Assembly: GCA_963826305.1 (NCBI GenBank)
Contig: CAWGWZ010000004.1
Location: 123,030 to 163,029, forward strand
Source of the DNA: an uncultured delta proteobacterium
GTDB lineage: Bacteria; Desulfobacterota; BSN033; UBA1163
Direction of reading: 5' to 3'
DNA: 40,000 nt
How positions within the stretch are numbered: the stretch's first letter is position 1; each line of letters begins with the position of its first letter. A program made the translations under genes and the position numbers. The notes below the pieces were generated by a model. That model was not told the DNA's origin. It ran no database searches and saw only the letters and a list, made by a program, of their open reading frames with translations. Positions 20,713 to 34,680 of this stretch are shown piece by piece.

Positions 20713-22872
20713 TTATTCATCGAGATAAGGCTGGATTTCGATGAAGTTGAATATCAATTCCTGTCCCACAGGGCCGCCTGACTCTTCGTCATTCCTCCAA
20801 TCTTTCACTGTTAGTCTTGCAGTTGTGCTCTTTGCACGAAATACACGCCAATGGTATTTCATCCAATATGGGTATTTTTGATTGAATTTACCAAGAGCAT
20901 GTGCATAGTTGTTTGGAAAGGTGAATTGAAACGCTTTTTTCTGTCCGGACAATAAGTCCGCATTGTCGAGATGGATCGACAAAGCGTGATCAGCCTTGAC
21001 AGATCTCTCCTGCACCAAATCTTGATAATCCCCTGTGATCATCTTCAAGGAATAGACTTGGCCAGGTGTGAGGTCTTTTATCTCCTGGCTAAACATATTT
21101 GGTTTTTTCGCACTACGCTTCATCCAAAGGAAAGTATCTCCATCATTGGTACGCGGATATCGTCCCTGGAGCCAACTATAGCCGTTGTAAGTGAGTGGTT
21201 TTGCACTCTCTTCCTCAGCAGGCAAGACAGTCCACGCATTTTCCCCCACGGCAAAATCTGGATTCTCGATGTGTGTCAGCTTATAAGGATCTTTGGCTAA
21301 TGGCTCAGTATTACCTTCGATACAATAGTGGCGATACAGACGACCTATCCACCTAATCGTCTCCTCGTCACAGTATGAGCTATGATATTCCTGGATTCCG
21401 CCGAGCCCAAAGAAGGCCGGATGGGTTGCTAAAAAGCGAAACTGCATGTCCATATACACTTTGAAATTAACGGTCGGGTCGGTATTAAGACTTTCGGTAG
21501 GTTGAGACATACATCCCAAGGCTATGACCATCCGACGCGTCGAGCCTGGAAGGTTATTTTCCCATCGACCCATCTCTTTCAGGAGACTTAGCTTGATGAA
21601 TGCCATAGCCTTTTCTTCTGTGGGCTGTTCAGTGAGATATCGTTCTCGGACTATATACCCTCCCTTTTCAATACAGGCCTTTAGGAATTCCGTAGATCGG
21701 TCTCCCCCGTTAAATGGACCCCCATAATAAGGCATAAAAGACTTTCCTTTGAATTTTGAATTGGAGTAAATCCGCTCCACCGCCTCTCGATAGAGGTCAT
21801 AGACTGTATCGTCTCCGCCTATAAATTCGTCAACGATGATGCCGTCCATGAGTGGATGTCGAAGACCGATGTAATTTGACCAGTACTTGTAGACTTCATC
21901 TGCAGCTGCCACACCGGTTTTCGTGAGTTTCGGCAAATAGGCGATCGACATCCATTTCTTCCCCCCATTTTTCCACTCTTTCAAATGCGGCGGCTCCGAC
22001 CCTTCGCTAATCATTACGTTCACATTGGGCAATATATCTTTGGACAAAAATTTCCAGTCATAAGGCCCGTAAGGGTGTATATGGGGATGCAGGTCATAAA
22101 AAGCATACTGTAGCATCGGAATAGACCGGACAATAAGATTCTTAAGGAAAGCTTTGCCCTTCCGTCCAACAAAGATGGTGTGTTTACCAGCAGGTAGAAA
22201 TCGCATAGCTTCGAGAGAAGGCTCGGTGCTATCTGAATGGACGATTACCGCTTCCTCCCTTGAATTTGAGTCTACCGAAACCCAGACTTCGCCGCCTTTC
22301 GTAATTTCAACTTCGGTTTTAACGTATACCCACCTATCGTAGGGATTATTGAAGACATACCTGTTGCGTATGCTTAAGGCCGCATTTTCCTGAACATTGA
22401 GCAGCTCCCAGACGAAGTTGTTCAAGATTTTAACGCCTTTGAAAATCTCCGGTTGGCCTTTCCAGAAAAAAGTTGATGTGGCTTCCTCACCAATAACCGT
22501 GCCTTCCGATCCTATTACATTGACATGAACAGCATACTCTCCCGCTGGAAGAGTTTTCATATCAAATTCAACATCTGTCTCGTTAGATACATCTGAAATA
22601 ATTTTCTGAATAATTGGCTTATTAGATTCGGAGAGCAATAGGTCTGCTCGAACCTTGCTTCCTAAGGGCATTGATTGTATTAGACGATTATCTATGGTTA
22701 GTGTAATCTTTCCTGGATCAGGATAAGTATGTATCTCCAGACTACCGGAATACTTAATACCAGCTTTTGGGCTCACAAAAGCACATGACAAAAACAAGGA
22801 GAAAATGATTAACTGAAGCCCCACACTTAGAATCACAAAAACCCCCTGGGGAACGTTGTTCAATTCTTTCAC
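20713..22872 (-). CDS. Exported 719-aa protein of unknown function (possible polysaccharide-active enzyme with a C-terminal beta-sandwich/CBM-like domain)
   Basis: Long intact ORF with an N-terminal hydrophobic signal-like segment (VFVILSVGLQLIIFSLFLSCAFV). The C-terminal NPDFAVGENAWTV..LTVKDW..ELIFNFIEI looks like a jelly-roll module. No catalytic family recognised. The first ~10 codons (GTG start) are built from a Box B repeat, so the true start may be GTG 22836. Confidence 0.7.
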   Translation of the reverse strand: MKELNNVPQGVFVILSVGLQLIIFSLFLSCAFVSPKAGIKYSGSLEIHTYPDPGKITLTIDNRLIQSMPLGSKVRADLLLSESNKPIIQKIISDVSNETDVEFDMKTLPAGEYAVHVNVIGSEGTVIGEEATSTFFWKGQPEIFKGVKILNNFVWELLNVQENAALSIRNRYVFNNPYDRWVYVKTEVEITKGGEVWVSVDSNSREEAVIVHSDSTEPSLEAMRFLPAGKHTIFVGRKGKAFLKNLIVRSIPMLQYAFYDLHPHIHPYGPYDWKFLSKDILPNVNVMISEGSEPPHLKEWKNGGKKWMSIAYLPKLTKTGVAAADEVYKYWSNYIGLRHPLMDGIIVDEFIGGDDTVYDLYREAVERIYSNSKFKGKSFMPYYGGPFNGGDRSTEFLKACIEKGGYIVRERYLTEQPTEEKAMAFIKLSLLKEMGRWENNLPGSTRRMVIALGCMSQPTESLNTDPTVNFKVYMDMQFRFLATHPAFFGLGGIQEYHSSYCDEETIRWIGRLYRHYCIEGNTEPLAKDPYKLTHIENPDFAVGENAWTVLPAEEESAKPLTYNGYSWLQGRYPRTNDGDTFLWMKRSAKKPNMFSQEIKDLTPGQVYSLKMITGDYQDLVQERSVKADHALSIHLDNADLLSGQKKAFQFTFPNNYAHALGKFNQKYPYWMKYHWRVFRAKSTTARLTVKDWRNDEESGGPVGQELIFNFIEIQPYLDE

Positions 22873-22877
22873 TTTTT
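22846..22877. repeat. Box B copy (overlaps the annotated start of the 719-aa ORF)
   Basis: Plus strand CTGGGGAACGTTGTTCAATTCTTTCACTTTTT. Gene-sense consensus is about GAAAAGTGAAnGAnTnnAACAACGTCCCCnnGG. Confidence 0.8.
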
Positions 22878-22926
22878 TTATTCAGTGGAGATCATAGAGA
22901 AGTCATTCGCCGCAAGACGCGAAGGA

Positions 22927-22975
22927 GGCTCCGGGGTCAAACCTTCAAAATTCAATTTCAATCGTTGGCAGCGTT
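22927..22975. repeat. Box A copy 1
   Basis: GGCTCCGGGGTCAAACCTTCAAAATTCAATTTCAATCGTTGGCAGCGTT, about 55 nt upstream (gene sense) of the 719-aa ORF. Confidence 0.9.
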
Positions 22976-23104
22976 CAGATCCTTAGGATCGTTGATACCG
23001 TTGGAAGAAGCTGAAAGCACAAAGCAGCTTAGTCAATGAGTCATTCAGTTATTAGGTCATTGGGTCAACTATAAGCTCAAAGTTCAAAGCTGAATGCTCA
23101 AAGG
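22976..23104. repeat. Composite short-tandem-repeat block (9-mers ..CGTT, 8-mers GTCATTGR, 7-mers AGCTSAA)
   Basis: ..cagatccttaggatcgttgataccgttggaagaagctgaaagc..agtcaatgagtcattcag..ggtcattgggtcaac..agctcaaagttcaaagctgaatgctcaaagg. Confidence 0.85.
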
Positions 23105-23187
23105 TGGAAGCGTACATGCGTTGAAGCGTTAACATGTCTATAGATCGTAGTGTCATAAGGTATATTGGGTCTATTGCATGGTAAGGC

Positions 23188-23454
23188 TTATTTATAAACA
23201 TCCCCTCTGAAGTCTATTCTTTCAACAGATATTACTCTTTCATTCTTATTCACCTCAAATATTATCCTTAACTTTCCTTTCCTCAGCCTGTAATAGCCTT
23301 CCCAATCTCCTACAAGTTTCTTTAAATCAATATTAACACTGCCCCCTTTCATTTTCATTAAAAACTTCTTTAATTCTTCTCTTACCTCGACGTGAACATC
23401 TTGCCTATCAATAAATTTTTCAGCGTCCCTGGAGTATTCAATTCTCCATTTCAT
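23188..23454 (-). CDS. RelE/ParE-superfamily type II toxin
   Basis: 88 aa: MKWRIEYSRDAEKFIDRQD..LVGDWEGYYRLRKGKLRIIFEVNKNERVISVERIDFRGDVYK. This is the typical RelE/ParE fold pattern. 4-nt overlap with the upstream small gene. Confidence 0.85.
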   Translation of the reverse strand: MKWRIEYSRDAEKFIDRQDVHVEVREELKKFLMKMKGGSVNIDLKKLVGDWEGYYRLRKGKLRIIFEVNKNERVISVERIDFRGDVYK

Positions 23455-23651
23455 ACTTCTACGGTCTCGCTATAAGCTGCTTCTTCTCCTGTCGATGGTT
23501 TACCATATAGCTTCTCAATATCCTCCATCTCCTCCTTAGAAATCGAAGGTATACTTCTCAGAAAGAATTCCAATGTTTCCTCCTCCAAGACTTCCCTTAC
23601 AGCTTTTTTTATAAGACCGTAAAGTTCATTTTTATCAATGATTACTTCCAC
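23451..23651 (-). CDS. Putative antitoxin of the RelE/ParE-like toxin (GTG start)
   Basis: 66-aa acidic ORF directly upstream of and overlapping the toxin, with AGGAG 6-8 nt upstream of the GTG. Assigned by position only. Confidence 0.6.
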   Translation of the reverse strand: MEVIIDKNELYGLIKKAVREVLEEETLEFFLRSIPSISKEEMEDIEKLYGKPSTGEEAAYSETVEV

Positions 23652-23682
23652 TTCTTTTCTCCTTTCGACTATTCATGTAGCT

Positions 23683-23691
23683 ATTATAACA
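23683..23691 (-). promoter_or_regulatory. Extended -10 candidate (TGTTATAAT) for the RelE/ParE cassette
   Basis: Gene sense TGTTATAAT, about 30 nt upstream of GTG 23651 and about 28 nt downstream of Box A copy 2. No good -35. Confidence 0.35.
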
Positions 23692-23718
23692 CAAGTCAAA
23701 ATAAAGATATAGACTAGA

Positions 23719-23765
23719 GACTCCGGGGTCACCTTCAAAATTCAATTTCAATCGTTGGCAGCGTT
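23719..23765. repeat. Box A copy 2
   Basis: GACTCCGGGGTCACCTTCAAAATTCAATTTCAATCGTTGGCAGCGTT, between the vapC stop and the RelE-cassette start. Confidence 0.9.
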
Positions 23766-23800
23766 TGGATCCTTCGCATAGAAGGGAGCTTCGCTGGAAT

Positions 23801-23850
23801 GTCATTGGTTTGTTTGGTTTTCCTGGTTTCTTTGGTTTGTTTAGTTTCTT
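23801..23850. repeat. Nonamer array (NNNNNNGTT family)
   Basis: gtcattggtt tgtttggtt ttcctggtt tctttggtt tgtttagtt. Confidence 0.85.
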
Positions 23851-23878
23851 TTATTAAATGGCGTCAGACAAGACACTT

Positions 23879-24313
23879 TCAACGACTTAATCCGAAATCA
23901 GCCAGTAATCGAATGGAAGGTTTCTGTTTAGTGCTCTTTTTAATTCTTCTATAAAATCTCTTATCTGCTGTTATAAACTCAAAACTTAATTCTTCGGCCA
24001 GCGCAAGATAAGTAGCGTCATAACAGGTTAAATCAAATTCTTTTGCGAATTCAACAGTTTTACCTAACAAAGTAACGGTTGGAGTAATGATTTCTATCCC
24101 CATACCAAATAGCGTGTCCAATGCTTCCTGAATTTCCTCTATCGAAAAACTCGCGTTGTAACGTAAGGCATTTGCAATTTCAAAGAGCAAGAGATCAGGA
24201 ACAACAATCTCTCTTTCTCCAGCATAGAACTCTTCGCGAAGTTTGAGTGCTCGACCGCTGTCCGCTTCATTTACAAACCATTTCAAAACCACGGATGCGT
24301 CTAAAACACTCAT
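23879..24313 (-). CDS. vapC: PIN-domain ribonuclease toxin VapC
   Basis: MSVLDASVVLKWF (first acidic D), ..PDLLLFEIANAL.., ..CYDATYLALAEE.., ..ITADKRF. These are the PIN acidic residues. The track ORF starts at 24355, but Met 24313 gives the classic ATGA overlap with the antitoxin stop. Confidence 0.9.
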   Translation of the reverse strand: MSVLDASVVLKWFVNEADSGRALKLREEFYAGEREIVVPDLLLFEIANALRYNASFSIEEIQEALDTLFGMGIEIITPTVTLLGKTVEFAKEFDLTCYDATYLALAEELSFEFITADKRFYRRIKKSTKQKPSIRLLADFGLSR

Positions 24314-24507
24314 CGAGCCTCTCTCCATTTCCTGATCGTGGAGACACTGTCCCAACCCTTTGGAACGGGATGATTCTCTCTGATCTTATCCTGTGTCTCT
24401 ATGGCAACCTTAATCTTGTCTTTATCCCGTAACCTTGCCCCTATGAGATAACTTATTCGTTTCTCAACAAGGCTCACTTTATCATAGTTATCAATAATCT
24501 TATCCAT
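24310..24507 (-). CDS. VapB-type antitoxin (small, C-terminal ..IRKWREAR)
   Basis: 65-aa ORF overlapping vapC by 4 nt. Assigned by position and size. Confidence 0.65.
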   Translation of the reverse strand: MDKIIDNYDKVSLVEKRISYLIGARLRDKDKIKVAIETQDKIRENHPVPKGWDSVSTIRKWREAR

Positions 24508-24572
24508 TTCTTACCCCCCCCGCTCTTTACCTGGACTTCACCATAACTGCCTTTGGACTAGTTTCTTTTGTT

Positions 24573-24601
24573 ATTTTATCATTTCAGATATTCACTAGCA
24601 A
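24573..24601 (-). promoter_or_regulatory. Sigma70-like promoter candidate for the vapBC cassette
   Basis: Gene sense TTGCTA-N17-TAAAAT (-35 at 24601-24596, -10 at 24578-24573), about 65 nt upstream of ATG 24507 and downstream of Box A copy 3. Confidence 0.45.
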
Positions 24602-24639
24602 CGGAATTATTAAACCAGTTTCGTGCGTTTTTGTTCAGA

Positions 24640-24686
24640 GGCTCCGGGGTCACCTTCAAAATTCAATTTCAATCGTTGGCAGCGTT
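24640..24686. repeat. Box A copy 3
   Basis: GGCTCCGGGGTCACCTTCAAAATTCAATTTCAATCGTTGGCAGCGTT, between the hicA stop and the vapB start. Confidence 0.9.
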
Positions 24687-24775
24687 CAGATCGGTAATAC
24701 CGTTGGAAGAAGCTGAAAGCTCAAAGCTGAAAGCGTTGATCGTAAAGAACGTTTGGATCGTTAACAACCTCTATA
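24687..24775. repeat. Composite 9-mer/7-mer block
   Basis: cagatcggtaataccgttggaagaagctgaaagctcaaagctgaaagcgttgatcgtaaagaacgtttggatcgttaac. Confidence 0.85.
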
Positions 24776-24788
24776 AGCTCGGCTTTGT

Positions 24789-25030
24789 CTACAATTTTCT
24801 CAGGATCTTGACAAACTCCACCTTTGTCAGTCCCATTTGCTCAATGATAGAGAGCAAAGTGCCTCTCGGAATTTCATCTCTATGAGGAATAATGACAAGG
24901 TGGGTCTTCTCCTCCGTCTTCTTTACAAACGCGGAATGGCTTCCCTTGCCCCCTTCGGAGCAGGTTCAAAACCCAAATATCTCAGGATTTTTATGACCTT
25001 TTTTGAAGAAAGTATAGGAAGTTTCGGCAT
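24789..25030 (-). pseudogene. hicA: HicA-family toxin, frameshifted (1 nt short in the G-run near 24943-24945)
   Basis: Hand translation from ATG 25030 gives MPKLPILSSKKVIKILRYLGFEPAPKGAREAIPRL*. Shifting one base restores ..GARGSHSAFVKKTEEKTHLVIIPHRDEIPRGTLLSIIEQMGLTKVEFVKILRKL* (GSH motif), ending at 24789. Confidence 0.75.
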
Positions 25031-25269
25031 TAAAGGACCAGTTCAAAGCTACCAGTAAACTTCTCCCTCACTGTAAGGCTCTCTTCTATGTCTTCCATTA
25101 AGTCCAGTTCTTTGGCGTTCTCAATATAAAGTTCTACTGCCTCTTTGAGATTGGCCACGGCTTCTTCAAATGTATCTCCACAACTGGCCACACCCAACTC
25201 AGGGCATTTAGATACAAAACCCCTTCTTTCTTTCCAGACAACTGCCGTATACTCAAGAATTTTCATCAT
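25030..25269 (-). CDS. hicB: HicB-family antitoxin (UPF0150-like)
   Basis: 79 aa: YTAVVWKERRGFVSKCPELGVASCGDTFEEAVANLKEAVELYIE. Its stop overlaps the hicA ATG by 1 nt. Confidence 0.85.
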   Translation of the reverse strand: MMKILEYTAVVWKERRGFVSKCPELGVASCGDTFEEAVANLKEAVELYIENAKELDLMEDIEESLTVREKFTGSFELVL

Positions 25270-25383
25270 TCACTCCTCTCTTCTCGTCTATAATTCTGCC
25301 AAACTCGTCCGCTTTTAACAAGCCTATCACTGCATCTGCCCATGGGCACGTCGCTGCGAAGCTGGCCCCAGTGCAATATCTAT

Positions 25384-25415
25384 CCGAGGGGACGTTGTTC
25401 ACTCCTTCACTTTTC
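25384..25415. repeat. Box B copy
   Basis: CCGAGGGGACGTTGTTCACTCCTTCACTTTTC, upstream (gene sense) of hicB 25269. Confidence 0.8.
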
Positions 25416-25589
25416 TTCTTTCCGTTGAGAGCGTTGGCCATAAGCTCGAAGCTGAAAGCTCAAAGGTGAGACTTCAAACCCTTTCAAAATCGTTTTGATC
25501 TATACCTCATTGCTTTAGCATTCCCCTAATCGTCCCTTGTTTAAGATCCTTGTTTCCTTAGTCAGGAATTACACTCCCTCTTCCTGTCA

Positions 25590-25622
25590 CTGAGGGGACG
25601 TTGCTTACTTCGTTCACTTTTC
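25590..25622. repeat. Box B copy
   Basis: CTGAGGGGACGTTGCTTACTTCGTTCACTTTTC, in the gene-less junction 25441-25715. Confidence 0.8.
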
Positions 25623-25715
25623 TGATTCCGTTTGGATCGTTGGGATCGTTAAGGACGTTTGGAGCGTAAATACTTAATGTGTTATAGCATGGATCATGGA
25701 AATATCAATATCATC

Positions 25716-25940
25716 TTAGGCATAGGCGAGTCTACCTTTTGGCTGTGGTATTTCTCTTCCCAAACTCAGTGCAGTATCTATCCACTCCGAAATAACAACT
25801 TCCGCATTTTTTATTGCTTCCTCATAGGTCAGTCCATCAGCCATACATCCAGGGAGCTCAGGAACTTCAATGATATACCGACCGTCTTCTTCGCTCCAAA
25901 AAATAATGAGTTCATACTTGTACATTTTAAACTCCTTCAT
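25716..25940 (-). CDS. hicB: HicB-family antitoxin
   Basis: YKYELIIFWSEEDGRYIIEVPELPGCMADGLTYEEAIKNAEVVISEWI. The likely true start is ATG 25925, 1 nt after the hicA stop. Confidence 0.85.
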   Translation of the reverse strand: MKEFKMYKYELIIFWSEEDGRYIIEVPELPGCMADGLTYEEAIKNAEVVISEWIDTALSLGREIPQPKGRLAYA

Positions 25941-26178
25941 GCAGCTTGTATTTAAAGATGATTACTCTAACCTGCTTGACCTGATAAGCTTTTGCTTTTC
26001 CGTCTTTAAGTGGTTGCAAGTTAATAATTTCTTCAATTCCCTCTCGGTAGTGGATATGATGGTCTCCCTTCATTCTTACAGAAAACCCAAAATCGTTCAA
26101 GAGCTTTGTGAGATCTTGAAACCGGATATTTTTATCAGCCAACCCACTAAGAACTCTATTTAACGTTTTCTTATCCAT
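25927..26178 (-). CDS. hicA: HicA-family toxin
   Basis: 83 aa: ..IRFQDLTKLLNDFGFSVRMKGDHHIHYREG..INLQPLKDGKAKAYQVKQV. YcfA/HicA-like pattern, immediately upstream of a hicB. Confidence 0.8.
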   Translation of the reverse strand: MDKKTLNRVLSGLADKNIRFQDLTKLLNDFGFSVRMKGDHHIHYREGIEEIINLQPLKDGKAKAYQVKQVRVIIFKYKLHEGV

Positions 26179-26202
26179 TATTTAATCCAGAAGAAAATAG
26201 AT

Positions 26203-26236
26203 CCAAGGGGACGTTGATGAAAATTGTGACTTTTCC
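26203..26236. repeat. Box B copy
   Basis: CCAAGGGGACGTTGATGAAAATTGTGACTTTTCC, just upstream (gene sense) of hicA 26178. Confidence 0.75.
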
Positions 26237-26277
26237 AAAAGGACCCAAACAGCGGGTCACTAAACCATAACGGGACG

Positions 26278-26311
26278 CCATGGGGAACGTTGTTGAAAAA
26301 TGACACTTTCC
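26278..26311. repeat. Box B copy
   Basis: CCATGGGGAACGTTGTTGAAAAATGACACTTTCC, in tandem with the 26203 copy. Confidence 0.75.
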
Positions 26312-26315
26312 ATCT

Positions 26316-26518
26316 TGGCTTATTGGGTTGATCTGGTTTATTTGGTTTATCTGGTTTAGAGCGTTGAGATCGTTGAGAACATTGGCCATGAGGTGAAAGC
26401 GAAAAGCATCAGAGCGTTGATGCGTAGGAGCGTAAATGCGATAAAACCCTTGATCGTTCGGATCATTGAGATTGTTGAGATCCTTGAGTTCGTTGAAAAC
26501 GTTTTGAACGTTTGGGAT
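26316..26518. repeat. Long degenerate nonamer array (..GTT every 9 nt)
   Basis: tattgggtt gatctggtt tatttggtt tatctggtt tagagcgtt gagatcgtt gagaacatt ... gatcgttcggatcattgagattgttgagatccttgagttcgttgaaaacgttttgaacgtttggg. It generates the spurious ORF 26171..26530 (..LNDLNALNQINQINQIN..). Confidence 0.9.
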
Positions 26519-26567
26519 GAAAATGACCATTCCCTCAAAACCTGAGGGTATAGCGCCTACCGAAAGA

Positions 26568-26798
26568 TTAAAGTCTTTCCCATTCCTCCAAGGGAATCTT
26601 CTTTTTCAGTCCGAGTTCAATTTCCTTGAGAAGCATTTTAATCTGTGGAATGGAATATTCGGTATTATGGGGCAGGGTCAGTGTAAATGTTCCGTAACGC
26701 ATGTAAAAGTGACGCCCGCCAGGTTCGGGTGAACTAAACCCGAGTTTCTTCAATTTCTTTATAAGATCTCTCCGCTTGCATGGTGCCCATCTACCCAT
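26568..26798 (-). CDS. hicA: HicA-family toxin
   Basis: 76 aa: KRRDLIKKLKKLGFSSPEPGGRHFYMRYGTFTLTLPHNTEYSIPQIKMLLKEI. 8-nt overlap with the upstream hicB-like gene. Confidence 0.85.
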   Translation of the reverse strand: MGRWAPCKRRDLIKKLKKLGFSSPEPGGRHFYMRYGTFTLTLPHNTEYSIPQIKMLLKEIELGLKKKIPLEEWERL

Positions 26799-27054
26799 GA
26801 ACGGTTGCCTCAGCGGGAGTAGGCATTTTCTTATTCAGATTGATTCCACCTATGACAGGCAATTTATCCCCATGTCTTATCTTCACAATCAGCCATCCTT
26901 CAAGTACCGACCTTAATTCTTCCTGACACTGATAAAGTGTTTCTCCAAATCCGATAACGCCAGGACATTGGGGAATGTTTCCAGAATAAGTACCATCCTC
27001 TAATTTTTCATACTCTGCTTTACTCATTGCCTTATCGATATATTCAAGAAGCAT
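26791..27054 (-). CDS. hicB: HicB-like antitoxin
   Basis: 87 aa: ..YSGNIPQCPGVIGFGETLYQCQEELRSVLEGWL. AAAGGAGG lies 8 nt upstream of the ATG. Confidence 0.8.
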   Translation of the reverse strand: MLLEYIDKAMSKAEYEKLEDGTYSGNIPQCPGVIGFGETLYQCQEELRSVLEGWLIVKIRHGDKLPVIGGINLNKKMPTPAEATVHG

Positions 27055-27103
27055 ATTGACGCCTCCTTTACCAAACCGTTGGAAGATTCCCCAACTTCAA
27101 TTT

Positions 27104-27112
27104 ATTATAACA
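27104..27112 (-). promoter_or_regulatory. Extended -10 candidate (TGTTATAAT) for the hicBA cassette
   Basis: An identical TGTTATAAT nonamer about 50 nt upstream of ATG 27054, downstream of Box A copy 4 and Box B. Confidence 0.35.
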
Positions 27113-27144
27113 CCTCTCCTCCACGAACCAAAACCCAAGCCGGC

Positions 27145-27178
27145 CCTGGAGGGAGGTAGTTGAATCCTTTCGCTTTTC
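27145..27178. repeat. Box B copy (diverged)
   Basis: CCTGGAGGGAGGTAGTTGAATCCTTTCGCTTTTC, between Box A copy 4 and the hicB promoter-like TGTTATAAT. Confidence 0.6.
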
Positions 27179-27258
27179 TCTTTCCGTTCGGCCCGTTGGG
27201 AACGTTTAGATCGTTAATCTCATTTATTTCGTTGATTTCGTCTACCTCGTCTATCATA
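27179..27258. repeat. Nonamer array
   Basis: tttccgttcggcccgttgggaacgtttagatcgttaatctcatttatttcgttgatttcgtctacctcgtc. It underlies the spurious ORF 27105..27299 (DEINEINEINDLN). Confidence 0.85.
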
Positions 27259-27264
27259 TTCGGA

Positions 27265-27313
27265 GGCTCCGGGGTTAAACCTTCAAAATTCAATTTCAAT
27301 CGTTGGCAGCGTT
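27265..27313. repeat. Box A copy 4
   Basis: GGCTCCGGGGTTAAACCTTCAAAATTCAATTTCAATCGTTGGCAGCGTT, between the DUF5615 stop and the hicB start. Confidence 0.9.
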
Positions 27314-27413
27314 TGGATCGCTAATACCGTTGGAAGAAACTGAAAGCATAAAGCTGAAAGCTCAAAGTGGATTAATAAAGAATGGTTGCTTAGCTCAGAC
27401 ACCTGAGTACAAC

Positions 27414-27767
27414 TTATTTCCAGGTACTCAAATATTCAAGCCGATTTTTCATGTCATGGGAAGTCAGAGAGAAGTATAACCTCATCAGTCTACGCAAAAC
27501 TATTCCTACTGGCAATTGGTCTGAGAGAATGATCCCTCCATGAAATCTTTCTGCGCTCATCCATCCATGATGAATCCGAGCAAAGTGTCGCTTATTATAT
27601 GAGAACAATGATCGTCTGGCTTCGGCTGCAAACATAAGCTGACCGGAATCCGTAAGACCTATATTCCCGGCTTCTTGGGTTGTGAGAACATCAACCCCTC
27701 TTGCTCTTAACGCTTCGGCAAGCGCTAATTGAATATCTTCGTCGAGGTAGAGAGAAATGTTAGCCAA
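27414..27767 (-). CDS. DUF5615-family PIN-like putative toxin
   Basis: 117 aa: ISLYLDEDIQLALAEALRARGVDVLTTQEAG..SDQ. Directly abuts the DUF433 gene with no gap, the usual DUF433/DUF5615 pairing. Confidence 0.8.
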   Translation of the reverse strand: MANISLYLDEDIQLALAEALRARGVDVLTTQEAGNIGLTDSGQLMFAAEARRSLFSYNKRHFARIHHGWMSAERFHGGIILSDQLPVGIVLRRLMRLYFSLTSHDMKNRLEYLSTWK

Positions 27768-28064
27768 TCAGTATCTTCCACCCGGAAAATTCTTTGATAC
27801 AGCCTCTTCTCTATCTCTTTCAAGCTCCCGGTCTATGACTTCTTTATGATCGAAATAATAAGCCAGCGCATCAAAAATCTGCGCCAGACTGAGGTGAGGA
27901 AGTTCCCTCCGAATTTCCTCCGCCGTCAACCCCATAAGATAATACCCAGCTATATTGCCAACCGAAACTCTGGTCCCCTTAATGACCGGACTACCTCCAC
28001 AAATTTCCTTGTTCACCGCTATATGAAAATGATCGGTCGTCTTTCGGCCCAAAGCTCCCTTCAT
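27768..28064 (-). CDS. DUF433-domain protein (putative antitoxin partner)
   Basis: 98 aa: ..EICGGSPVIKGTRVSVGNIAGYYLMGLTAEEIRRELPHLSLAQIFDALAYY, the characteristic DUF433 core. Confidence 0.85.
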   Translation of the reverse strand: MKGALGRKTTDHFHIAVNKEICGGSPVIKGTRVSVGNIAGYYLMGLTAEEIRRELPHLSLAQIFDALAYYFDHKEVIDRELERDREEAVSKNFPGGRY

Positions 28065-28152
28065 AGACCAACTCCTTCTTTCCTTATTTGAATTTTAGGA
28101 TACCATGGATAACCAAGTTAATCAAGTAATGCTCTAATAGTAAATTTCTCGG

Positions 28153-28239
28153 GTAGAGTAGAGAACTGGCGTAGTGGCTAACGCTCTATCTCCAGCTCCC
28201 CCTCGTCAAACCGTACGTTCAGTTTTCCCGAATACGGCT
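28153..28239 (-). ncRNA. Group II intron domains V and VI (ribozyme catalytic core and branch-site helix)
   Basis: On the minus strand, AAGCCGUAUUCGGGAAAACUGAACGUACGGUUU has the AGC triad, a 2-nt bulge and a GAAA-type loop. It is followed by GAGGGGGAGCUGG...CCAGUUCUCUACUCUAC, which forms a stem with a bulged A. Confidence 0.8.
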
Positions 28240-28245
28240 TTCCGA

Positions 28246-29574
28246 TCATCTTCGTACAGAGGCTTTCGCAGTCTGAGTCCATGGAGCAGTGGTTGGCACC
28301 TTGTAAAGATGCAGATTGTCGTAGAGGTACTGATTTGGATACTGACAATAGCCTCTGTTTTTCTTCGCCTGCTTCCGTCTCAGATAGATGCGGACTCTCT
28401 CTTCCAGAAACCGTTTGACCATGGACAGGTTCCGGCTACAGTTCCCATAGTAAAAGTAACCGACCCATCCCCTTACTGCCTCATTCAATTTCTGGATGAT
28501 CACCTCTTTAGGTAACCTAAGTGTTCTCCGACAGGTTAAAGCCTTTATCTCCGCCTGGATCTGCGCCATGGCTTTCTTTGAGGGCCTGATCAAAGGAAAC
28601 TTCTTCCCTGTCCTGGGACTCTTTGCCATTTCCACGGTGAATCCAAGGAAGTCAAACCGCTCCCTCCAGGTGTTCACCACTCTCGTCTTTTCCTCATTTA
28701 GGTTTAGTCCCAGTTTTCCCAATGTGGCTCCGGTCCCCTTCAAGATCCTCTCGGCGTTTCCGCGACACATCACCACGAAATCGTCTGCGTACCGAATCAG
28801 TCTGGCCTCCATCCTCTCCTCAACCTTCTTCGCCTTCCATAATTTGTCCAGTACGTTAAGATAGATGTTGGCCAGCAGCGGTGATATCACTCCTCCCTGC
28901 GGGGTCCCCCTTGGATTCCCTATGGCTCTACTCTTCCCATCCTCTCCCTCTTCGACCACTGGCGCCTTCAACCACCGCTTGATGAGCCGAAGGATATGCT
29001 TGTCCACGACCCGCTTGGCCACTAACGCCAGTAGCTTATCGTGAGGAATGGTATCAAAATATTTCGAGATGTCAGCATCGATTACCTGATTCTTCCCCAT
29101 GCGAAGCTGTAAGGTAAGGTCATCCATCGCCTGATGGGCATCCCGCTTCGGCCTAAACCCATAGGAATTGTCCTCAAAGTCCGCCTCAAAGATCGGTTCG
29201 ATGACGATCTTCACCGCCATCTGCACCACCCGATCCTTAATCGTCGGTATTCCCAAGGGCCTTCGGCTTCCATCCGACTTCGGAATGTTCACCCTCCTCA
29301 CAGGCATCGGCTTATACACCTTCCCCCTTAGTTCCTCTGCCATCTGTTCAAGGTATCTTTCCACTCCCCCTTGTCTCTTCTCTATGCCTTCAAAGCTCTC
29401 CCCGTCTACTCCCGGTGCTCCTTTGTTGGCTCTCACAAGGCGATAAGCGTGACTCAGGATGTCTCGCCGATATACCTTGTCATAGAGAAGATAGAACCGG
29501 TATTCCTTCTCTTGCTTGGCCTTCCGGTATAGTCTCCTCTGAAGTTCCCGAACCTTTTCTGGAGTTTCAAGCAT
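28246..29574 (-). CDS. Group II intron reverse transcriptase/maturase (no D/En domain)
   Basis: 442 aa with [65 protein letters not shown] (YADD), and maturase X region [11 protein letters not shown]. Confidence 0.95.
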
Positions 29575-30087
29575 CCCGCAATCTCCTGGCCCTCCCCTCT
29601 TCAGAAACTGATGAAAGTATTGCCCCTTCCCTCTCCTAAGGTTCTGCTCTCCTTAGGATTCAAACGGTACTCCGGGCAACTCCGACTCCCTCACAGACCG
29701 AGTGAAATTTCGTCTCCTTATATCCACCCGTTGCTCTCCTGTATAGCATCTGAAAGGGCCTCCCGTGCTATCCCACATGACTTCCCCTGCGTGTCACCCC
29801 TGCTACCCCGGAAGTCCATCTGTCGGTTCTGGCAGTTTTCGTTAGGACAGATGTCCCAGCCTTCCCCAAACGTCCAAAGGGTCGGCAACTTCGTTCTCAA
29901 TTACGAGGCTACCTATAGGTTCGCTTGCGCTGCAACCCGCAGGATTGCTCAACTCACTCATTGAGCCTTCGTCAGGGAACTCAATGCTTCGGGTTACCCC
30001 TAACATCTCCCTCCAGCTACATGGGCGAACTGCCCAATTCCCATGGCCGGACTTTAACCGGCAAGTCATGCGTTGTACACGGCATAC

Positions 30088-30112
30088 GGACGGGGTTGAA
30101 TCTTTCCACTTG
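30088..30112. repeat. Box B copy, 5' portion, interrupted by the group II intron
   Basis: Gene sense AAGTGGAAAGATTCAACCCCGTCC|intron. After conceptual splicing to CCGAGAAA (28152 downward) the CGTCCCC core of Box B is restored. Confidence 0.65.
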
Positions 30113-30148
30113 TCTCGTTTATTTTGTCTATCACCCCTGTGAAAGGGA

Positions 30149-30262
30149 GAATGTCAAATGTGAAATGTTGAGAGCGTTGAGCTCGTTAATACCGTTGAGA
30201 CCGTTGAGTTCGTTGGGATCGTTGATTGAGTTTGTTGCATTGATAGCGTTCATCGTGTATAT
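30149..30262. repeat. Heptamer (AATGTNA) then nonamer array, flanking the intron 5' exon
   Basis: gaatgtcaaatgtgaaatgttg agagcgtt gagctcgtt aataccgtt gagaccgtt gagttcgtt gggatcgtt gattgagtt tgttgcatt gatagcgtt. It underlies the spurious ORF 30131..30334. Confidence 0.9.
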
Positions 30263-30370
30263 GCGAAAATGCGTCCAAGCGTCGCTGAGTCGATGATCCA
30301 CTGCGGAATGCAGAATGCGTAACAAAACACTCAAAAAGATGGGATAAATAATCTGGCAACATTCAAGAGG

Positions 30371-30637
30371 TTATACCTTGTAAACATTATCATGATGATC
30401 AAAATCAAGCAGCGTCACTATTTTTCTTTCTACATCGATCTCGTAAACTAAAACAAGGGAACCACTAATATGAACCCTGCGCTTATTTTGTAAGGGTTTT
30501 CTTAACGACTTAAATCGATAAGGATCTTCAAGAATATCTCCCACCTTTCTTTCAATTAACCGAAGCATCTCCTTGTCTTTCTTCTGGAGCTTCTTAAATT
30601 TCTTATCCAGTTTTTCTTTAATAGCAAGTCTATACAC
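30371..30637 (-). CDS. RelE/StbE-family type II toxin (mRNA interferase)
   Basis: 88 aa: ..ILEDPYRFKSLRKPLQNKRRVHISGSLVLVYEIDVERKIVTLLDFDHHDNVYK. 1-nt overlap with the upstream small gene. Confidence 0.85.
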   Translation of the reverse strand: MYRLAIKEKLDKKFKKLQKKDKEMLRLIERKVGDILEDPYRFKSLRKPLQNKRRVHISGSLVLVYEIDVERKIVTLLDFDHHDNVYKV

Positions 30638-30825
30638 TATTTTAAGCCGTATCTTTTGCCGAAGTCTTCAACCATGATTGATTTCTCGAGGTCAATATCT
30701 CGCATCCGTAAAATAAAATCATCGCGCAACTCAGGTTCCTCCATAAGACTTTTTTTGATCTCACCCACGTCCCGCTGCAAATCGACTACCTTTTTATAAA
30801 TGGTTTCCAAAGTAATGCTCTTCAT
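30637..30825 (-). CDS. Putative antitoxin of the RelE-like toxin
   Basis: 62-aa charged helical ORF directly upstream, with GGAGGATGA upstream of the ATG. Assigned by position only. Confidence 0.6.
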   Translation of the reverse strand: MKSITLETIYKKVVDLQRDVGEIKKSLMEEPELRDDFILRMRDIDLEKSIMVEDFGKRYGLK

Positions 30826-30947
30826 CGATTCATCCTCCTATACCCATTCCGTCAGTGTATCGAATATATCCTTTTTAGTGATCTCGGCCATCACTCGCCT
30901 CACTGTGTTGGGCTAATGTACCGCAACTCATCAGGTCTATCCAGTAC

Positions 30948-30980
30948 CTCACGGCACGTTGTTCGCTTCTCCCACTCTTC
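30948..30980. repeat. Box B copy (diverged)
   Basis: CTCACGGCACGTTGTTCGCTTCTCCCACTCTTC, upstream (gene sense) of the 30825 cassette. Confidence 0.55.
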
Positions 30981-31066
30981 TCCGGTTAGATCGTTAAGAT
31001 CGTTGAAACTCCTGGGGGACGGTGCAAATGAAAAATGTACAATGTGAAAGCGGGATAATATTTTGG

Positions 31067-31507
31067 CTATTTTAGGGGATTGATGGTTTCAAACCCTATA
31101 GCACTTACAACATCGCAAAGAATGTCATCGGAAGCTACAAATCTCCAGTCTCTTTCTGCAATCAAGCTAAACGTTCCTATTTGAATCGCATCAAGAGTCC
31201 TCAATCGTTTTGTTTTACCAAATCGCTGCAATAAATCTTCTGCCTCTCCAAGAATGGCGTGCCCCAGAGGTTCAACATTAAAAGAGCGAATCTGTTCTTC
31301 AAATCCAATCATGGCTTTTCGCAACTGTTCCTCATTGATTTCTTGATTCCTTAACCTTCGAAATAGGGTGCTGAGAAATTCAGTCTTAGAAAGTTCTGAA
31401 ATCCAAATTTGATTATCCTCTGAAAGGATGAGATCTGTAACCAGTGGAGATCCTTTTTCTTCATGGAAAAACTTTACAAGGGCTGATGTATCAAAAAATA
31501 GGATCAT
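31067..31507 (-). CDS. vapC: PIN-domain toxin VapC
   Basis: MILFFDTSALVKFF.., ..ISELSKTEFLS.., ..LRTLDAIQIG.., ..VASDDIL. These are the PIN acidic residues. ATGA overlap with the upstream gene. Confidence 0.9.
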   Translation of the reverse strand: MILFFDTSALVKFFHEEKGSPLVTDLILSEDNQIWISELSKTEFLSTLFRRLRNQEINEEQLRKAMIGFEEQIRSFNVEPLGHAILGEAEDLLQRFGKTKRLRTLDAIQIGTFSLIAERDWRFVASDDILCDVVSAIGFETINPLK

Positions 31508-31725
31508 CCTCGGTCCTCTCTAAGAGAGAGAATGTCTTCACTCAACGATCCTTTACATGATTTCAATGCCTCCCGCACTCTGACATAGGGTGGAGTTATT
31601 TCTCCTTTTGTTTTTTTATCCAAATCCCGTTTCAAGGAGAGGATGAGGTCATATACTTTTAAAAGATCATCGGGTTTTAATCCTTCCAGTTCTTTTATGG
31701 TCTTATCTTTCATTTTCATATTCAA
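31504..31725 (-). CDS. Putative VapB-type antitoxin
   Basis: 73-aa ORF overlapping vapC by 4 nt, with GGAGAG upstream of the ATG. Assigned by position. Confidence 0.6.
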   Translation of the reverse strand: MNMKMKDKTIKELEGLKPDDLLKVYDLILSLKRDLDKKTKGEITPPYVRVREALKSCKGSLSEDILSLREDRG

Positions 31726-31850
31726 CTCTCCTAAATTCGATTAGAGACGTACAAATATTCTATCCCATATCCTTAGAATATTGTCAAATTGGTCGGATTT
31801 GTTGCCTATGCTCGTCACACAGAGGACGCTGGCTCTAAAACAACTTGCCT

Positions 31851-32062
31851 CGTTTGAACCGTTAAGAGCGTTCAGGTCGTTTGGAACAAGCTGAAAGTTC
31901 AAAGCTCAAGGCTCAAAGGGGATTAAGGAAATCTGGGAGACCTTGTTGAATTCTTTCGCTATTTTCTTCCTGTTAGAGCCGTTGAGTTCGTTCAGACCCC
32001 TAATACCGTTGGGATCGTTGAGAACGCTAACCGTTTAGGTCGTTCGGATCGGTGCTCGTTAA
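31851..32062. repeat. Composite 9-mer/7-mer blocks flanking a Box B copy
   Basis: cgtttgaaccgttaagagcgttcaggtcgtttggaacaagctgaaagttcaaagctcaaggctcaaagg ... gttagagccgttgagttcgttcagacccctaataccgttgggatcgttgagaacgctaaccgtttaggtcgttcggatcgg. Confidence 0.85.
31933..31966. repeat. Box B copy (diverged)
   Basis: CTGGGAGACCTTGTTGAATTCTTTCGCTATTTTC, between the fcl stop and the first TA cassette. Confidence 0.6.
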
Positions 32063-32085
32063 CTTCATCGGAACATCGCATACCG

Positions 32086-33555: not shown

Positions 33556-34680
<1,125 letters not shown>

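Follow-up and report, generated by a model that had tools for sequence, protein, structure and literature searches.

How eight toxin-antitoxin (TA) pairs came to stand in one row and one orientation inside a polysaccharide gene cluster, and what joins them to one another, is the question raised by this locus. The window, i.e. the whole stretch of DNA that was analysed, comprises 40,000 nt of an uncultured delta proteobacterium (GCA_963826305.1, contig CAWGWZ010000004.1, positions 123,030-163,029 of the forward strand), the host being an uncultured Desulfobacterota/deltaproteobacterial-type bacterium of the sulfate-reducer type. Eight co-oriented two-gene TA modules, all on the minus strand, are found at 22873-32085, and open reading frames (ORFs) together with Pfam searches bore out both their positions as given in the initial annotation and the frameshift it had noted in hicA of module 6, which is matched by Pfam after one frameshift repair. 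Toxins and partners were assigned by Pfam; three small upstream partner ORFs gave no Pfam match, and their antitoxin label derives from size, position and overlap.

Module 1, 31067-31725, minus strand: antitoxin-like ORF (31725-31504) and PIN/VapC toxin (31507-31067; PIN, E=1.2e-7).
Module 2, 30371-30825, minus strand: 62-aa antitoxin-like ORF and ParE/RelE-family toxin (30637-30371; ParE_toxin, E=1.4e-6).
Module 3, 27414-28138, minus strand: leader with promoter-like site (TTAACT-18-TAAAAT, 28121-28092), DUF433 (28064-27768) and DUF5615 (27767-27414), by Pfam.
Module 4, 26568-27054, minus strand: HicB (UPF0150) and HicA, by Pfam.
Module 5, 25716-26178, minus strand: HicA and HicB in reversed gene order, by Pfam.
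Module 6, 24789-25269, minus strand: HicB and HicA, with a 1-nt frameshift in hicA (Pfam E=1.2e-14 after repair).
Module 7, 23879-24507, minus strand: VapB-like ORF and PIN/VapC (24313-23879; PIN, E=2e-13).
Module 8, 23188-23651, minus strand: RelB-like antitoxin and ParE/RelE toxin (23454-23188), by Pfam; extended -10 (TGTTATAAT) in the leader at 23691-23683, kept in contig L144.

Each TA pair is an autonomous unit with its own leader, two genes and a short 3' tail, and with a promoter-like site in several cases. Modules 1 and 2 were also found in the independent assembly L001, module 1 in the same place.

The linkers between the units, of 230-450 nt, consist of GCTTTSA heptamers, TGACYNAA octamers, NNNNNAACG and AAACCNNNN nonamers, and boxes A, B and C of 30-70 nt. 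The repeats greatly exceed chance expectation: tandem repeats of 7-mers and 9-mers are reported by TRF, and a 22-mer of Box A has four exact occurrences against 0 expected. A single grammar had been proposed for all junctions. It holds for the nonamer (..AACG) arrays and for an element of the Box A or Box B(-like) type, present in all nine, but not for the leading 7/8-mer block, found in five only (J0, J3, J5, J6 and J8), nor for number and order, J0 and J5 each containing two linker sets and J0 a partly reversed order of elements.

J0 (fcl to module 1), 31726-32085, minus strand, read in gene sense: nonamers 32049-31980; degenerate Box B 31962-31930; heptamers 31919-31892; nonamers 31886-31851; unique leader.
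J1, 30826-31066, minus strand: nonamers 31009-30992; degenerate Box B 30978-30944; 5' UTR and first ~16 codons of a coiled-coil gene.
J2, 5' part, 30088-30370, minus strand: ~120 nt unique; nonamers 30250-30167; 7-mer-like run 30168-30138; 5' half of Box B 30119-30088, cut by an intron.
J3, 27055-27413, minus strand: heptamers 27375-27336; nonamers 27335-27301; Box A 27301-27263; nonamers 27255-27185; degenerate Box B 27184-27145; leader.
J4, 26179-26567, minus strand: nonamer tail 26517-26452; nonamers 26385-26362; AAACC-nonamers 26361-26315; Box B variant B3 26312-26283; B2 and left arm 26275-26200; alone among the junctions in having a long open frame (129 codons, p=0.004).
J5, double linker, 25270-25715, minus strand: nonamers 25664-25629; Box B 25625-25590; ~120 nt unique; heptamers 25470-25442; nonamers 25440-25423; Box B 25420-25385; leader.
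J6, 24508-24788, minus strand: nonamers 24767-24741; heptamers 24734-24710; nonamers 24710-24674; Box A 24674-24638; leader with promoter-like site (TTGCTA-17-TAAAAT, 24601-24573).
J7, 23652-23878, minus strand: AAACC-nonamers 23851-23807; two GCGAAGC-type mini-hairpin units ~23800-23771; nonamers 23770-23753; Box A 23753-23717; leader.
J8 (module 8 to a 719-aa glycan-locus gene), 22845-23187, minus strand: Box C 23187-23105; heptamers 23104-23073; octamers 23067-23028; heptamers 23023-23008; nonamers 23007-22963; Box A 22963-22925; Box B 22880-22845, overlapping the called GTG start at 22872.

In the window, 48 of the 52 repeat elements are on the gene-sense strand; in contigs L002-L005 and L017-L023 all copies of Box A and Box B and all arrays of heptamers and octamers are in gene sense, with a few short nonamer matches antisense. 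The repeats had been tied to TA cassette boundaries, and they do occur at all nine TA junctions, but in L003 and L020 the same classes also flank genes for sugar biosynthesis and further small genes, and heptamer/octamer arrays lie outside the TA region at window positions 138-165 and 34739-39002. In L003 they flank genes for a Gfo/Idh/MocA-acetyltransferase fusion and for a DegT aminotransferase, and the sugar genes of this contig show 72% amino-acid identity and synteny with GTDB MAG VGSF01. The association with accessory modules is itself partly an ascertainment bias, all related (L-numbered) contigs having been retrieved via box or TA-protein searches. The linkers are lineage-specific, general intergenic mosaic repeats rather than a recombination site peculiar to TA pairs. 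In a related species, whose DUF433 is 78% identical, heptamers, octamers and nonamers persist in gene sense but Box A and Box B are missing; Box B is found, though rarely, in eight other Desulfobacterota-type MAGs, has a sharp 3' edge and is conserved in other genera.

The strong gene-sense orientation, and the persistence of the repeat classes across species while the boxes change, are in line with linkers being mainly selected RNA-level elements (three-frame stops, Rho-loading or regulator-binding nonamers) that insulate the TA units and the polysaccharide operon, recombination being a by-product. A segment with C in excess of G (ratio 1.6-3.7) is present just past the stop codon in all nine junctions, as compared with a C/G of 0.62 in the TA genes, stop codons prevail on the sense over the antisense strand in seven of them, and intrinsic terminators were absent from the junctions. 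Folding of the linkers gave no structure better than shuffled sequences on either strand (z from -1.2 to +1.6). Such roles are also a tentative part of the preferred reading given below: once transcribed, heptamers and octamers may give stop codons in all three frames, the C-rich nonamers could conceivably load Rho, judging from their composition and absent structure, and the linkers might also insulate modules from one another. As the main account of the locus, RNA-level function is doubtful: the composition signals cannot be separated from the fact that the repeats all form one family in one orientation, C/G across whole junctions is 1.03, the argument is drawn from sequence, and the permutation of modules described below is left unexplained.

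Modules 3, 4, 6, 7 and 8 and a fragment of J5 recur with 96-99% nucleotide identity in other metagenome contigs, where their neighbours differ. Module 3 (27334-28138) is 98.9% identical to L004 2872-3676, with different flanks, and the arrangement around it in L004 is found again in L017 and L019. Module 4 (27086-26392) is 97% identical to L144 209-903, where the nonamer tail of J4 (26517-26452) accompanies it, and module 8 (23711-23084) matches L144 1367-1994 at 96% identity, with other surroundings. In L144 module 4 is followed by module 8, not by module 5, and the J5 fragment (25494-25455) sits upstream of module 4; the order is 5-fragment, 4, 8 as compared with 4, 5, 6, 7, 8 in the window. 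Module 6 (25315-24716) is 99% identical to L002 468-1068, with different neighbours and an intact hicA. For module 7 (24628-23913) the match is with L005 122-836 (98.9%), and likewise with L016; in both a group II intron immediately precedes the module, and vapC passes at its 3' end into an array of AAACC-nonamers. Module 5 has a homologue of 77% nucleotide identity at the end of L013, and Box C and linker of J8 are 76% identical to L004 5649-5951. Since promoter-like sites fall within the conserved part of the modules, DNA rather than an mRNA copy was transferred.

The comparison covered metagenome contigs, in which allelic rearrangement between strains and paralogous arrays within a genome look alike, and shows that the modules reassort between strains or loci while their linkers change independently. 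Linkers do not move with modules, no module keeps its own linker across contexts, and the distance between the upstream box and the module boundary varies with the context (6/35, 17/31, 70/11 and 14/44 nt). In every case homology ends at the start of the generic linker repeats, but such ends at a heptamer array or box are a consequence of the grammar itself and do not locate the crossovers. Of the cassette-array logic initially proposed, the recurrence of five modules with other neighbours, the permuted contig and the ends of homology at linker repeats are in support, but the linkers are neither TA-cassette-specific nor module-bound, and their boxes lie at variable distances.

These data bear on whether Box A, Box B or the heptamer array could be the site of a recombinase encoded outside the window, with precise excision and insertion there, as in a true site-specific integron-like system. 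The co-oriented array, the box that closes every junction ahead of the next leader, the permuted order in relatives and the sharp 3' edge of Box B are compatible with it, as are two MAGs with 143 nt in common that stop ~8 nt past Box B and are unrelated beyond. The initial annotation had seen no recombinase and no attC-like elements, and indeed the 40 kb contain no integrase or transposase, the linkers show no attC-like fold, and Rfam matched no family apart from the intron; among the related TA contigs, recombinase-type genes are limited to an ordinary IS200 and an rve-type IS, both in L020. Furthermore, gene remnants are present within junctions: J1 carries a truncated coiled-coil gene, intact at L003 840-1247 (window 30846-31004 being 88.7% identical to L003 730-888 by blastn), and L004 the remnant of a sugar-gene C-terminus. 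Because of these remnants, of the varying distances and of linkers that are not TA-specific, flank ordinary sugar genes and are not module-bound, recombination within dispersed repeats is favoured, and a site-specific system is unlikely.

Still less probable, to the point of being barely credible, is that the linkers belong to the non-autonomous mobile elements, either MITE/PATE-like or moved in trans by a transposase (Y1/HUH or other), and insert between genes, the TA pairs being what separates the insertions. IS200/IS605-type elements typically insert strand-specifically, a Y1_Tnp gene is present in the related array of L020, Box B has a sharp edge, and in L003 and L004 an 11-bp hairpin insert separates the nonamers from Box A. 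However, the Y1_Tnp element of L020 sits within a RelE gene and has its own perfect terminal hairpins, unrelated to the linkers; the latter show no terminal hairpins, inverted repeats or target duplications and are combinatorial instead of being a fixed-length unit; identical modules in differing contexts would also be unexplained.

One mobile element, absent from the initial annotation, does lie within the array:

Group II intron, 28153-30087, minus strand: 1,935 nt, GUAUG...CUAC, between modules 2 and 3, with an RT/maturase ORF (29574-28246; RVT_1 and GIIM domains).

Its boundaries were set by comparison with L003, L005 and L016, and Rfam matches are RF02003 (30064-29925) and RF00029 (28242-28153). 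It interrupts a copy of Box B immediately after ..CCCGTCC, and its nt 213-219, GGACGUU (candidate EBS1), are complementary to the Box B core AACGTCC. The flanks of an occupied (L003 9724) and an empty (L004 2585) site are 98.9% identical over 180 nt. The pair of sites identifies the Box B core as the homing site of the resident intron, with recognition apparently through EBS1-IBS1 pairing. The repeat being the target of a retroelement, its family offers many landing sites.

Group IIC introns insert at terminators or attC, and cyanobacterial STRR are oriented intergenic tandem heptamers. The island resembles Vibrio-type (super)integrons in being a long co-oriented array of small accessory modules, with many TA pairs having their own promoters, and in that close relatives differ in module content and order. 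Unlike them, it has no intI, attI or Pc, its junctions are direct tandem or boxed repeats and not folded attC-like palindromes, and its modules carry no cognate 3' site, the junction repeats also flanking ordinary biosynthetic genes. Neisserial intergenic mosaic element (NIME) arrays, considered here together with minimal mobile elements, are combinatorial non-coding arrays of short repeat families that flank variable genes, vary in number between strains and have been proposed to promote exchange through recombination; their dRS3, a 20-bp inverted repeat, is also the integration site of a mobile element (PMC1797815). The island shares with them the combinatorial intergenic arrays beside variable genes, and the dRS3 integration site parallels Box B and its intron; the island repeats are unrelated in sequence, direct and strand-oriented as opposed to inverted, and belong to an environmental Desulfobacterota-type host, with modules that are mostly TA pairs within an EPS locus. 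TAACTGA heptamers are oriented intergenic tandem repeats of Beggiatoaceae, Cyanobacteria and Bacteroidetes (PMC4679880), here present solely as an isolated copy within one box. As in the island, they come as runs of two to about seven 7-nt units, intergenic and mostly forward relative to genes, with no predicted structure, forward-sense stops in all frames and no function assigned to them; in the island the units differ, several classes succeed one another in a preferred order together with boxes, and the repeats mainly follow stop codons, whereas those of TAACTGA lie 1 nt before start codons. IS elements that target intergenic REP repeats (PMC1525189) are, like the island retroelement, directed to a dispersed intergenic repeat, although the intron target has no stem-loop. 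By this comparison, NIME arrays and TAACTGA/STRR repeats appear to be the closest parallels. The initial annotation could not assign the junctions to a described element class; mosaic intergenic arrays beside variable genes and oriented tandem heptamers are, however, both described.

Near-identical linker pieces recur at many junctions, hence the linkers are taken to serve as portable homology. Recombination between them, of RecA type or by slippage, would duplicate, delete, swap and permute the intervening units, and gene remnants in the junctions would be its leftovers. The repeat order and orientation kept across species, and the edge and conservation of Box B, suggest selection for a function outside this explanation. 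As a whole, 22873-32085 is probably best explained as a TA island accumulated inside an EPS/O-antigen-type polysaccharide cluster, with repeat-built linkers between its units. It would be, on the best reading, integron-like in behaviour yet no integron: probably an oriented, lineage-specific system of intergenic mosaic repeats whose portable homology reshuffles accessory modules in the polysaccharide locus.

The initial annotation had placed eight two-gene modules on the minus strand of window 22873-32085, and the ORFs found there bear this out in every position. Numbered here 1 to 8 from the high coordinate to the low, the modules encode, according to Pfam, two PIN, two ParE/RelE, three HicA and one DUF5615 (PIN-like) predicted toxins, with HicB/UPF0150, DUF433 or RelB-like proteins as partners.

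Predicted toxin and antitoxin genes of the island (Pfam)
31507-31067, minus strand, PIN toxin (module 1)
30637-30371, minus strand, ParE/RelE toxin (module 2)
28064-27414, minus strand, DUF433/DUF5615 (module 3)
27054-26568, minus strand, HicB(UPF0150)/HicA (module 4)
26178-25716, minus strand, HicA/HicB (module 5)
25269-24789, minus strand, HicB and HicA, one frameshift repair needed (module 6)
24313-23879, minus strand, PIN toxin (module 7)
23454-23188, minus strand, ParE/RelE toxin (module 8)

With small, adjacent or overlapping, co-oriented genes and a known toxin family in each, the modules are predicted to be type II toxin-antitoxin (TA) pairs; three upstream partner ORFs had no Pfam match and owe the antitoxin label to size, position and overlap only. 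Of the island, approximately 4.3 kb is TA coding sequence and 2.9 kb is junctions; the rest is a group II intron of 1,935 nt. No recorded match was obtained when the proteins of modules 3, 5, 6 and 8 and the 719-aa protein encoded beyond module 8 were looked up by exact sequence. The frameshift in hicA of module 6 (window 24789-25041, minus strand) consists of the loss of one A in aag(a)gggg. Since hicA is intact in the 99% identical copy on the related contig L002, and approximately 26 single-base indels distinguish the window from the sister assembly L001 between 36 and 39.5 kb, it may be a long-read assembly error rather than the mark of a pseudogene.

The nine junctions, from J0 (fcl to module 1) to J8 (module 8 to the gene of the 719-aa protein), are 227-446 nt long and are composed of the following repeat elements, described in gene sense.

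Repeat elements of the junctions
Heptamer, GCTTTSA
Octamer, TGACYNAA
Nonamer class 1, NNNNNAACG
Nonamer class 2, AAACCNNNN
Box A, gctgccaacgattgaaattgaattttgaaggtNgaccccggagcctc, about 45 nt, copies nearly identical
Box B, consensus AAAAGTGAAAGAATTGAACAACGTCCCC, variants B2 to B4
Box C, about 80 nt

The gene-sense strand holds 48 of the 52 scored repeat elements in the window and 11 of 12 heptamer arrays, which TRF located at 23073-23103, 24710-24734, 25442-25469, 27336-27367 and 31888-31918, plus some outside the island. A 22-mer of Box A has four exact occurrences (zero expected), and the information content of Box B falls sharply right after CCCC. The proposal that all junctions follow one grammar stands in part: all nine junctions contain nonamers as well as a terminal element of the Box A or Box B(-like) type, whereas the leading 7/8-mer block is limited to 5/9. 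Two linker sets each are found in J0 and J5, and J1 retains the 5' UTR and approximately the first 16 codons of a gene for a coiled-coil protein, complete in the related contig L003.

Alongside AAACC nonamers a second linker 'dialect' was observed, formed by tandem units of approximately 17-25 nt that combine TTCCA with a mini-hairpin (agcGAAgct, tgcGAAgca or tccGAAgga) of the type of the stable GCGAAGC DNA hairpins.

TTCCA/mini-hairpin units
Window 23771-23800, minus strand
L002 1860-2180
L005 900-1130
L144 2270-2390

A perfect 11-bp stem-loop (ccccgtgaaat...atttcactgggg) lies between the nonamers and Box A at L003 30-65 and L004 4815-4850, and is absent from the Box A copies of the window. 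Upstream in the locus, at window 38824-39125, a composite tandem repeat (periods of 47, 33 and 61 nt; TRF scores up to 257) is built of heptamer units and AAATACCGCTAA.

A coding role of the junctions was ruled out, as 8/9 resemble shuffles and the Box B variants differ by frame-breaking indels. A possible exception is J4, the only junction of the nine with a long open frame (129 stop-free codons, p=0.004 versus shuffles); its 119-aa ORF (window 26171-26530, minus strand) passes through nonamers and two Box B variants and matches no family. Neither canonical sigma-70 promoters (10 found, 15 expected) nor intrinsic terminators (6 found, 9.4 expected) are enriched in the island. When eight linkers were folded as single-stranded DNA on both strands none did better than shuffles (z from −1.2 to +1.6), the inverted-repeat search detected no recurrent inverted repeats in the junctions, and Rfam at E<=1 matched the group II intron only and no junction. 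By these folding scores and the Rfam search, attC-like or otherwise structured DNA or RNA was ruled out.

The composition of the junctions bears on the possibility that the primary role of the linkers is exerted at the RNA level, in Rho loading or as an insulator. In the transcript, the heptamers and octamers put stop codons in all frames, and an unstructured stretch with C>G directly follows the stop codon in 9/9 junctions (C/G of the TA genes, 0.62), to be compared with the approximately 80 nt of C-rich, G-poor, unstructured and untranslated RNA downstream of a stop codon that define a rut site. However, this evidence is compositional only, and C>G and lack of structure are not independent of the repeat family. 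Such a primary role is unlikely, and it would be compatible with a recombination layer.

Copies of several modules were found in other contexts. Module 6 (window 25315-24716) has a 99% identical copy at L002 468-1068, where another gene lies upstream and a RelB/RelE pair takes the downstream place that module 7 has in the window. Module 3 (28138-27334) shares 98.9% identity with L004 3676-2872, where it is enclosed by DUF4258 and PIN_3 pairs, an arrangement found again in L017 and L019 from two further samples. Module 7 (24628-23913) has 98.9% identical counterparts in L005 and L016, with a group II intron immediately upstream of it and the 3' end of vapC fused to an AAACC-nonamer array. In L144 (96-97% identical) the order is 5-fragment (of J5), 4, 8 versus 4, 5, 6, 7, 8 in the window, which reads as a permutation and not as a simple deletion. 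In the independent assembly L001 (98.7% identical), the order fcl, module 1, module 2, intron is the same as in the window. Variants occur in the samples ERZ25039515, ERZ27247709, 3300032069, 3300069122 and 3300056618.

In every case the shared homology comprises the leader, the two genes and a short tail, and ends at the start of the generic repeats, with promoter-like sites (28121-28092 and 24601-24573) inside the shared part. The modules move as naked units. Since promoter-like sites in front of the leader belong to the conserved part, what is transferred is DNA and not retro-copied mRNA, and retro-copying of TA mRNAs by the intron reverse transcriptase was discarded. How far the upstream box lies from the module boundary depends on the context (6/35, 17/31, 70/11 and 14/44 nt); as this spacing is not constant, crossovers are not fixed at a box. 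Modules are permuted and have new neighbours; the linkers do not travel. That homology ends at a heptamer array or box partly restates the grammar and does not locate the crossovers. The copies elsewhere are compatible both with alleles of different strains and with paralogous arrays in one genome, between which the comparison cannot separate. The truncated coiled-coil gene of J1 and the remnant in L004 of a sugar fusion gene, of which the C-terminal end is retained, indicate repeated deletion and replacement.

These results do not sustain the likening of the island to a new, integron-like class of element. An integron needs IntI with attI and Pc beside the array, and its cassettes keep their own attC, an imperfect inverted repeat of 55-140 nt at the cassette 3' end that folds as single-stranded DNA, with a fixed core crossover. 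Here IntI was not found in the window, and both flanking linkers of modules 3, 4, 6, 7 and 8 differ in other contigs; a module brings no cognate 3' site along, so the transfer is not integron-like. The repeats are also not specific to TA genes. The separate statements that no recombinase is in view and that the junctions are not attC-like were both correct: Pfam searches, covering ORFs of at least 110 aa in the minus-strand gene series of the window and all TA ORFs (33844-34281 and 34342-34680 being assigned from called genes of L001), gave no integrase or transposase in the 40 kb, and integrase is likewise absent from the called genes of L001, L017 and L020-L022.

It is probable that the linkers are the lineage's oriented intergenic mosaic repeats, acting as portable homology that reshuffles small modules. 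Linkers recurring in the same orientation at many junctions would provide short homologies (about 45 nt for Box A, 20-70 nt for heptamer and for nonamer arrays), and recombination or slippage between them would reshuffle the intervening small modules within polysaccharide loci. A dedicated site-specific system, to be set against the varying box-to-boundary distances, is less likely than portable homology and, in itself, improbable. A more ambitious proposal is that selection has kept the linker code as a transferable cassette boundary, both insulating and recombining, in which heptamers and octamers with stops in three frames would be followed by C-rich unstructured nonamers and then by the box; in its stronger version a recombinase would read the heptamer or the box. 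This proposal is conceivable but doubtful.

The group II intron of 1,935 nt (window 30087-28153, minus strand) was missing from the initial annotation. It matches Rfam RF02003 and RF00029 and contains an ORF (29574-28246) with RVT_1 and GIIM domains, in which Pfam found no endonuclease domain; its ends, GUAUG...CUAC, were set by comparison with L003, L005 and L016.

Copies of the group II intron
Window 28153-30087, minus strand
L003 9725-9845
L005 1-98
L007 2674-2972

In the window the intron interrupts a Box B copy (aagtggaaagattcaaccccgtcc / intron / ccgagaaattt), and a second copy in L003 is inserted after ttatggacgtcc. L004 has the empty site ttatggacgtccctctaagcc, with flanks 98.9% identical to those of the occupied L003 over 180 nt up to the insertion point. 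Matching 3' junctions are ctac/ctctaagc in L005 and L016 and ctac/cctcag in L007. Nucleotides 213-219 of the intron, GGACGUU, are complementary to AACGTCC, which is the best-conserved stretch of Box B. The two probably form the EBS1-IBS1 pairing, and the box family would supply many homing sites. Ribozyme domains, the reverse transcriptase/maturase ORF, precise ends and the putative target pairing together support assignment as a group II intron. The intron is multi-copy (window and L001 copies differ by approximately 5%), and contigs of several assemblies end within it, indicating that it breaks assemblies. Its position parallels that of IS elements that target REP sequences (PMC1525189) and of phage integrating into neisserial dRS3 repeats (PMC1797815).

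The linker repeats are not confined to TA cassettes. Heptamer and octamer arrays lie between non-TA genes at window 138-165 and 34739-39002, and in L003 complete linkers surround a Gfo/Idh/MocA-acetyltransferase fusion gene and a DegT aminotransferase gene as well as small retropepsin-like genes and TA pairs. Several genes for 23S-rRNA-intervening-sequence proteins (four-helix bundle) are scattered through the same loci, each standing alone as a small module with these repeats at its borders.

23S-rRNA-intervening-sequence-protein genes
Window 33103-33534, minus strand
L001 563-955
L002 3130-3582

The Box A 22-mer retrieved four contigs from JGI metagenomes, all from one sample, and exact Box A had no match in 185,579 GTDB representative genomes. 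The sugar genes of L003 share synteny and 72% amino-acid identity with VGSF01, a GTDB MAG labelled 'Deltaproteobacteria bacterium' from a lake water column, which likewise carries the intron, Box B, TA pairs and weaker nonamer/heptamer runs. On its contig (L013), direct repeats of approximately 45 nt (cacaggacaggttatcggataagcgaaagcagaga) at 1510-1555 and 2140-2185 bracket a coiled-coil gene, of which a second, 85% identical copy is present. In contigs L020-L023 of a related species (DUF433, 78% identical), heptamers, octamers and both nonamer classes, all gene-sense, occupy the interval that separates an epimerase gene from a sensor kinase/response regulator pair; neither Box A nor Box B was found there. 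A DUF433 homologue with 77% identity bears the name 'Desulfobacterales bacterium'.

A degenerate Box B 27-mer matched nine contigs of eight MAGs, six labelled as Deltaproteobacteria/Thermodesulfobacteriota types and two small contigs as Zixibacteriota and Pseudomonadota, with one or two copies per contig and a single stretch in one contig of 562 kb. From this distribution, Box B is judged to be old, rare elsewhere and proliferated in the source species. The source organism is most likely of a Desulfobacterota type, going by those contig labels and the name of the DUF433 homologue rather than by a phylogenetic placement. In L009-L011, contigs of other Desulfobacterota MAGs, Box B is preceded by an RBS-like AAGGTG and starts with GTG (candidate N-terminal peptide MKELNNVP..; L009 3395-3450), and at L008 3110-3170 two copies in tandem share the reading frame of a signal-peptide (secreted) protein; in the source organism Box B is without RBS and often out of frame. 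L010 and L011 have 143 nt in common, ending approximately 8 nt past Box B, and are unrelated beyond. Box B had no match in IMG/VR, where a pattern of five AACG with period 9 hit upwards of 120 viral loci, unrelated and evidently triplet repeats in coding sequence, an uninformative result.

The surroundings of the island form one long co-oriented polysaccharide locus with glycosyltransferases, Wzy-like and flippase-like proteins, asparagine synthase, methyltransferases, a sugar transferase, a split transketolase, fcl, a fragmented gmd and CpsB/CapC, and, in L001, a NusG paralogue. The Wzy_C and NusG-paralogue frames (window 35986-39545) are broken in the window and intact in L001 (510 and 179 aa). 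As gmd is in three fragments in both assemblies (window 33844-34680), this pseudogene looks real. Within the 785-nt gap between the sugar transferase and methyltransferase genes, window 3939-4507 (minus strand) matches the two-gene module (89 and 151 aa) of L006 2252-3004 with 75-80% nucleotide identity. No minus-strand ORF of at least 110 aa is intact here, and the stretch may represent another small module of the glycan cluster, now decayed. Because islands rich in repeats and introns break short-read assemblies, with contigs stopping inside the intron or the linkers, the TA and accessory content of such lineages is probably under-represented in MAGs.

The closest described analogues of the linkers are the NIME arrays and minimal mobile elements of Neisseria (PMC1797815). 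As in the NIME/BIME kind, the linkers are combinatorial, strain-variable, non-coding arrays of short repeats beside variable genes; the likeness is one of kind only, the dRS3 and REP/PU sequence families being absent here. The tandem units come closest to oriented heptamer repeats, TAACTGA among them (PMC4679880), which, as STRR, are likewise direct, 7-nt, intergenic and biased to gene sense, with a unit that differs from that of the linkers. REP/BIME systems with a RAYT have palindromic hairpins and a flanked RAYT, whereas the linkers are unstructured and the sole Y1_Tnp (165 aa) belongs to an IS200-type element in a related species (L020 4966-5487). This element has its own perfect terminal hairpins, ccgcccagctttgctgggcgg and ccccgcagctctgctgcgggg, and interrupts RelE of a RelB/RelE pair, disrupting the toxin and keeping the antitoxin; as an ordinary IS200 inside a toxin gene, it was rejected as a RAYT for the linkers. 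That the linkers are themselves mobile in the manner of MITEs is very improbable, and less likely than portable homology.

TA islands, mosaic intergenic arrays, oriented heptamers and repeat-targeting retroelements are each of a known kind, and no description of their combination was found in the literature. Here, several tandem classes are chained with boxes in a preferred order and are conserved across related Desulfobacterota-type species; the repeats separate autonomous TA units inside an EPS locus; modules are permuted between near-identical strains, and a group II intron probably homes to one box. To the intron, the dispersed intergenic box would offer many landing sites. If the linkers are portable homology, perhaps with transcriptional insulation, they would achieve integron-like cassette shuffling by repeats alone and offer a tractable case for the role of oriented tandem heptamer-type intergenic repeats. 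If the cassette-boundary proposal were true, the lineage would stack autonomous TA or defence modules in a long polysaccharide operon, with no dedicated integrase needed to rearrange them.
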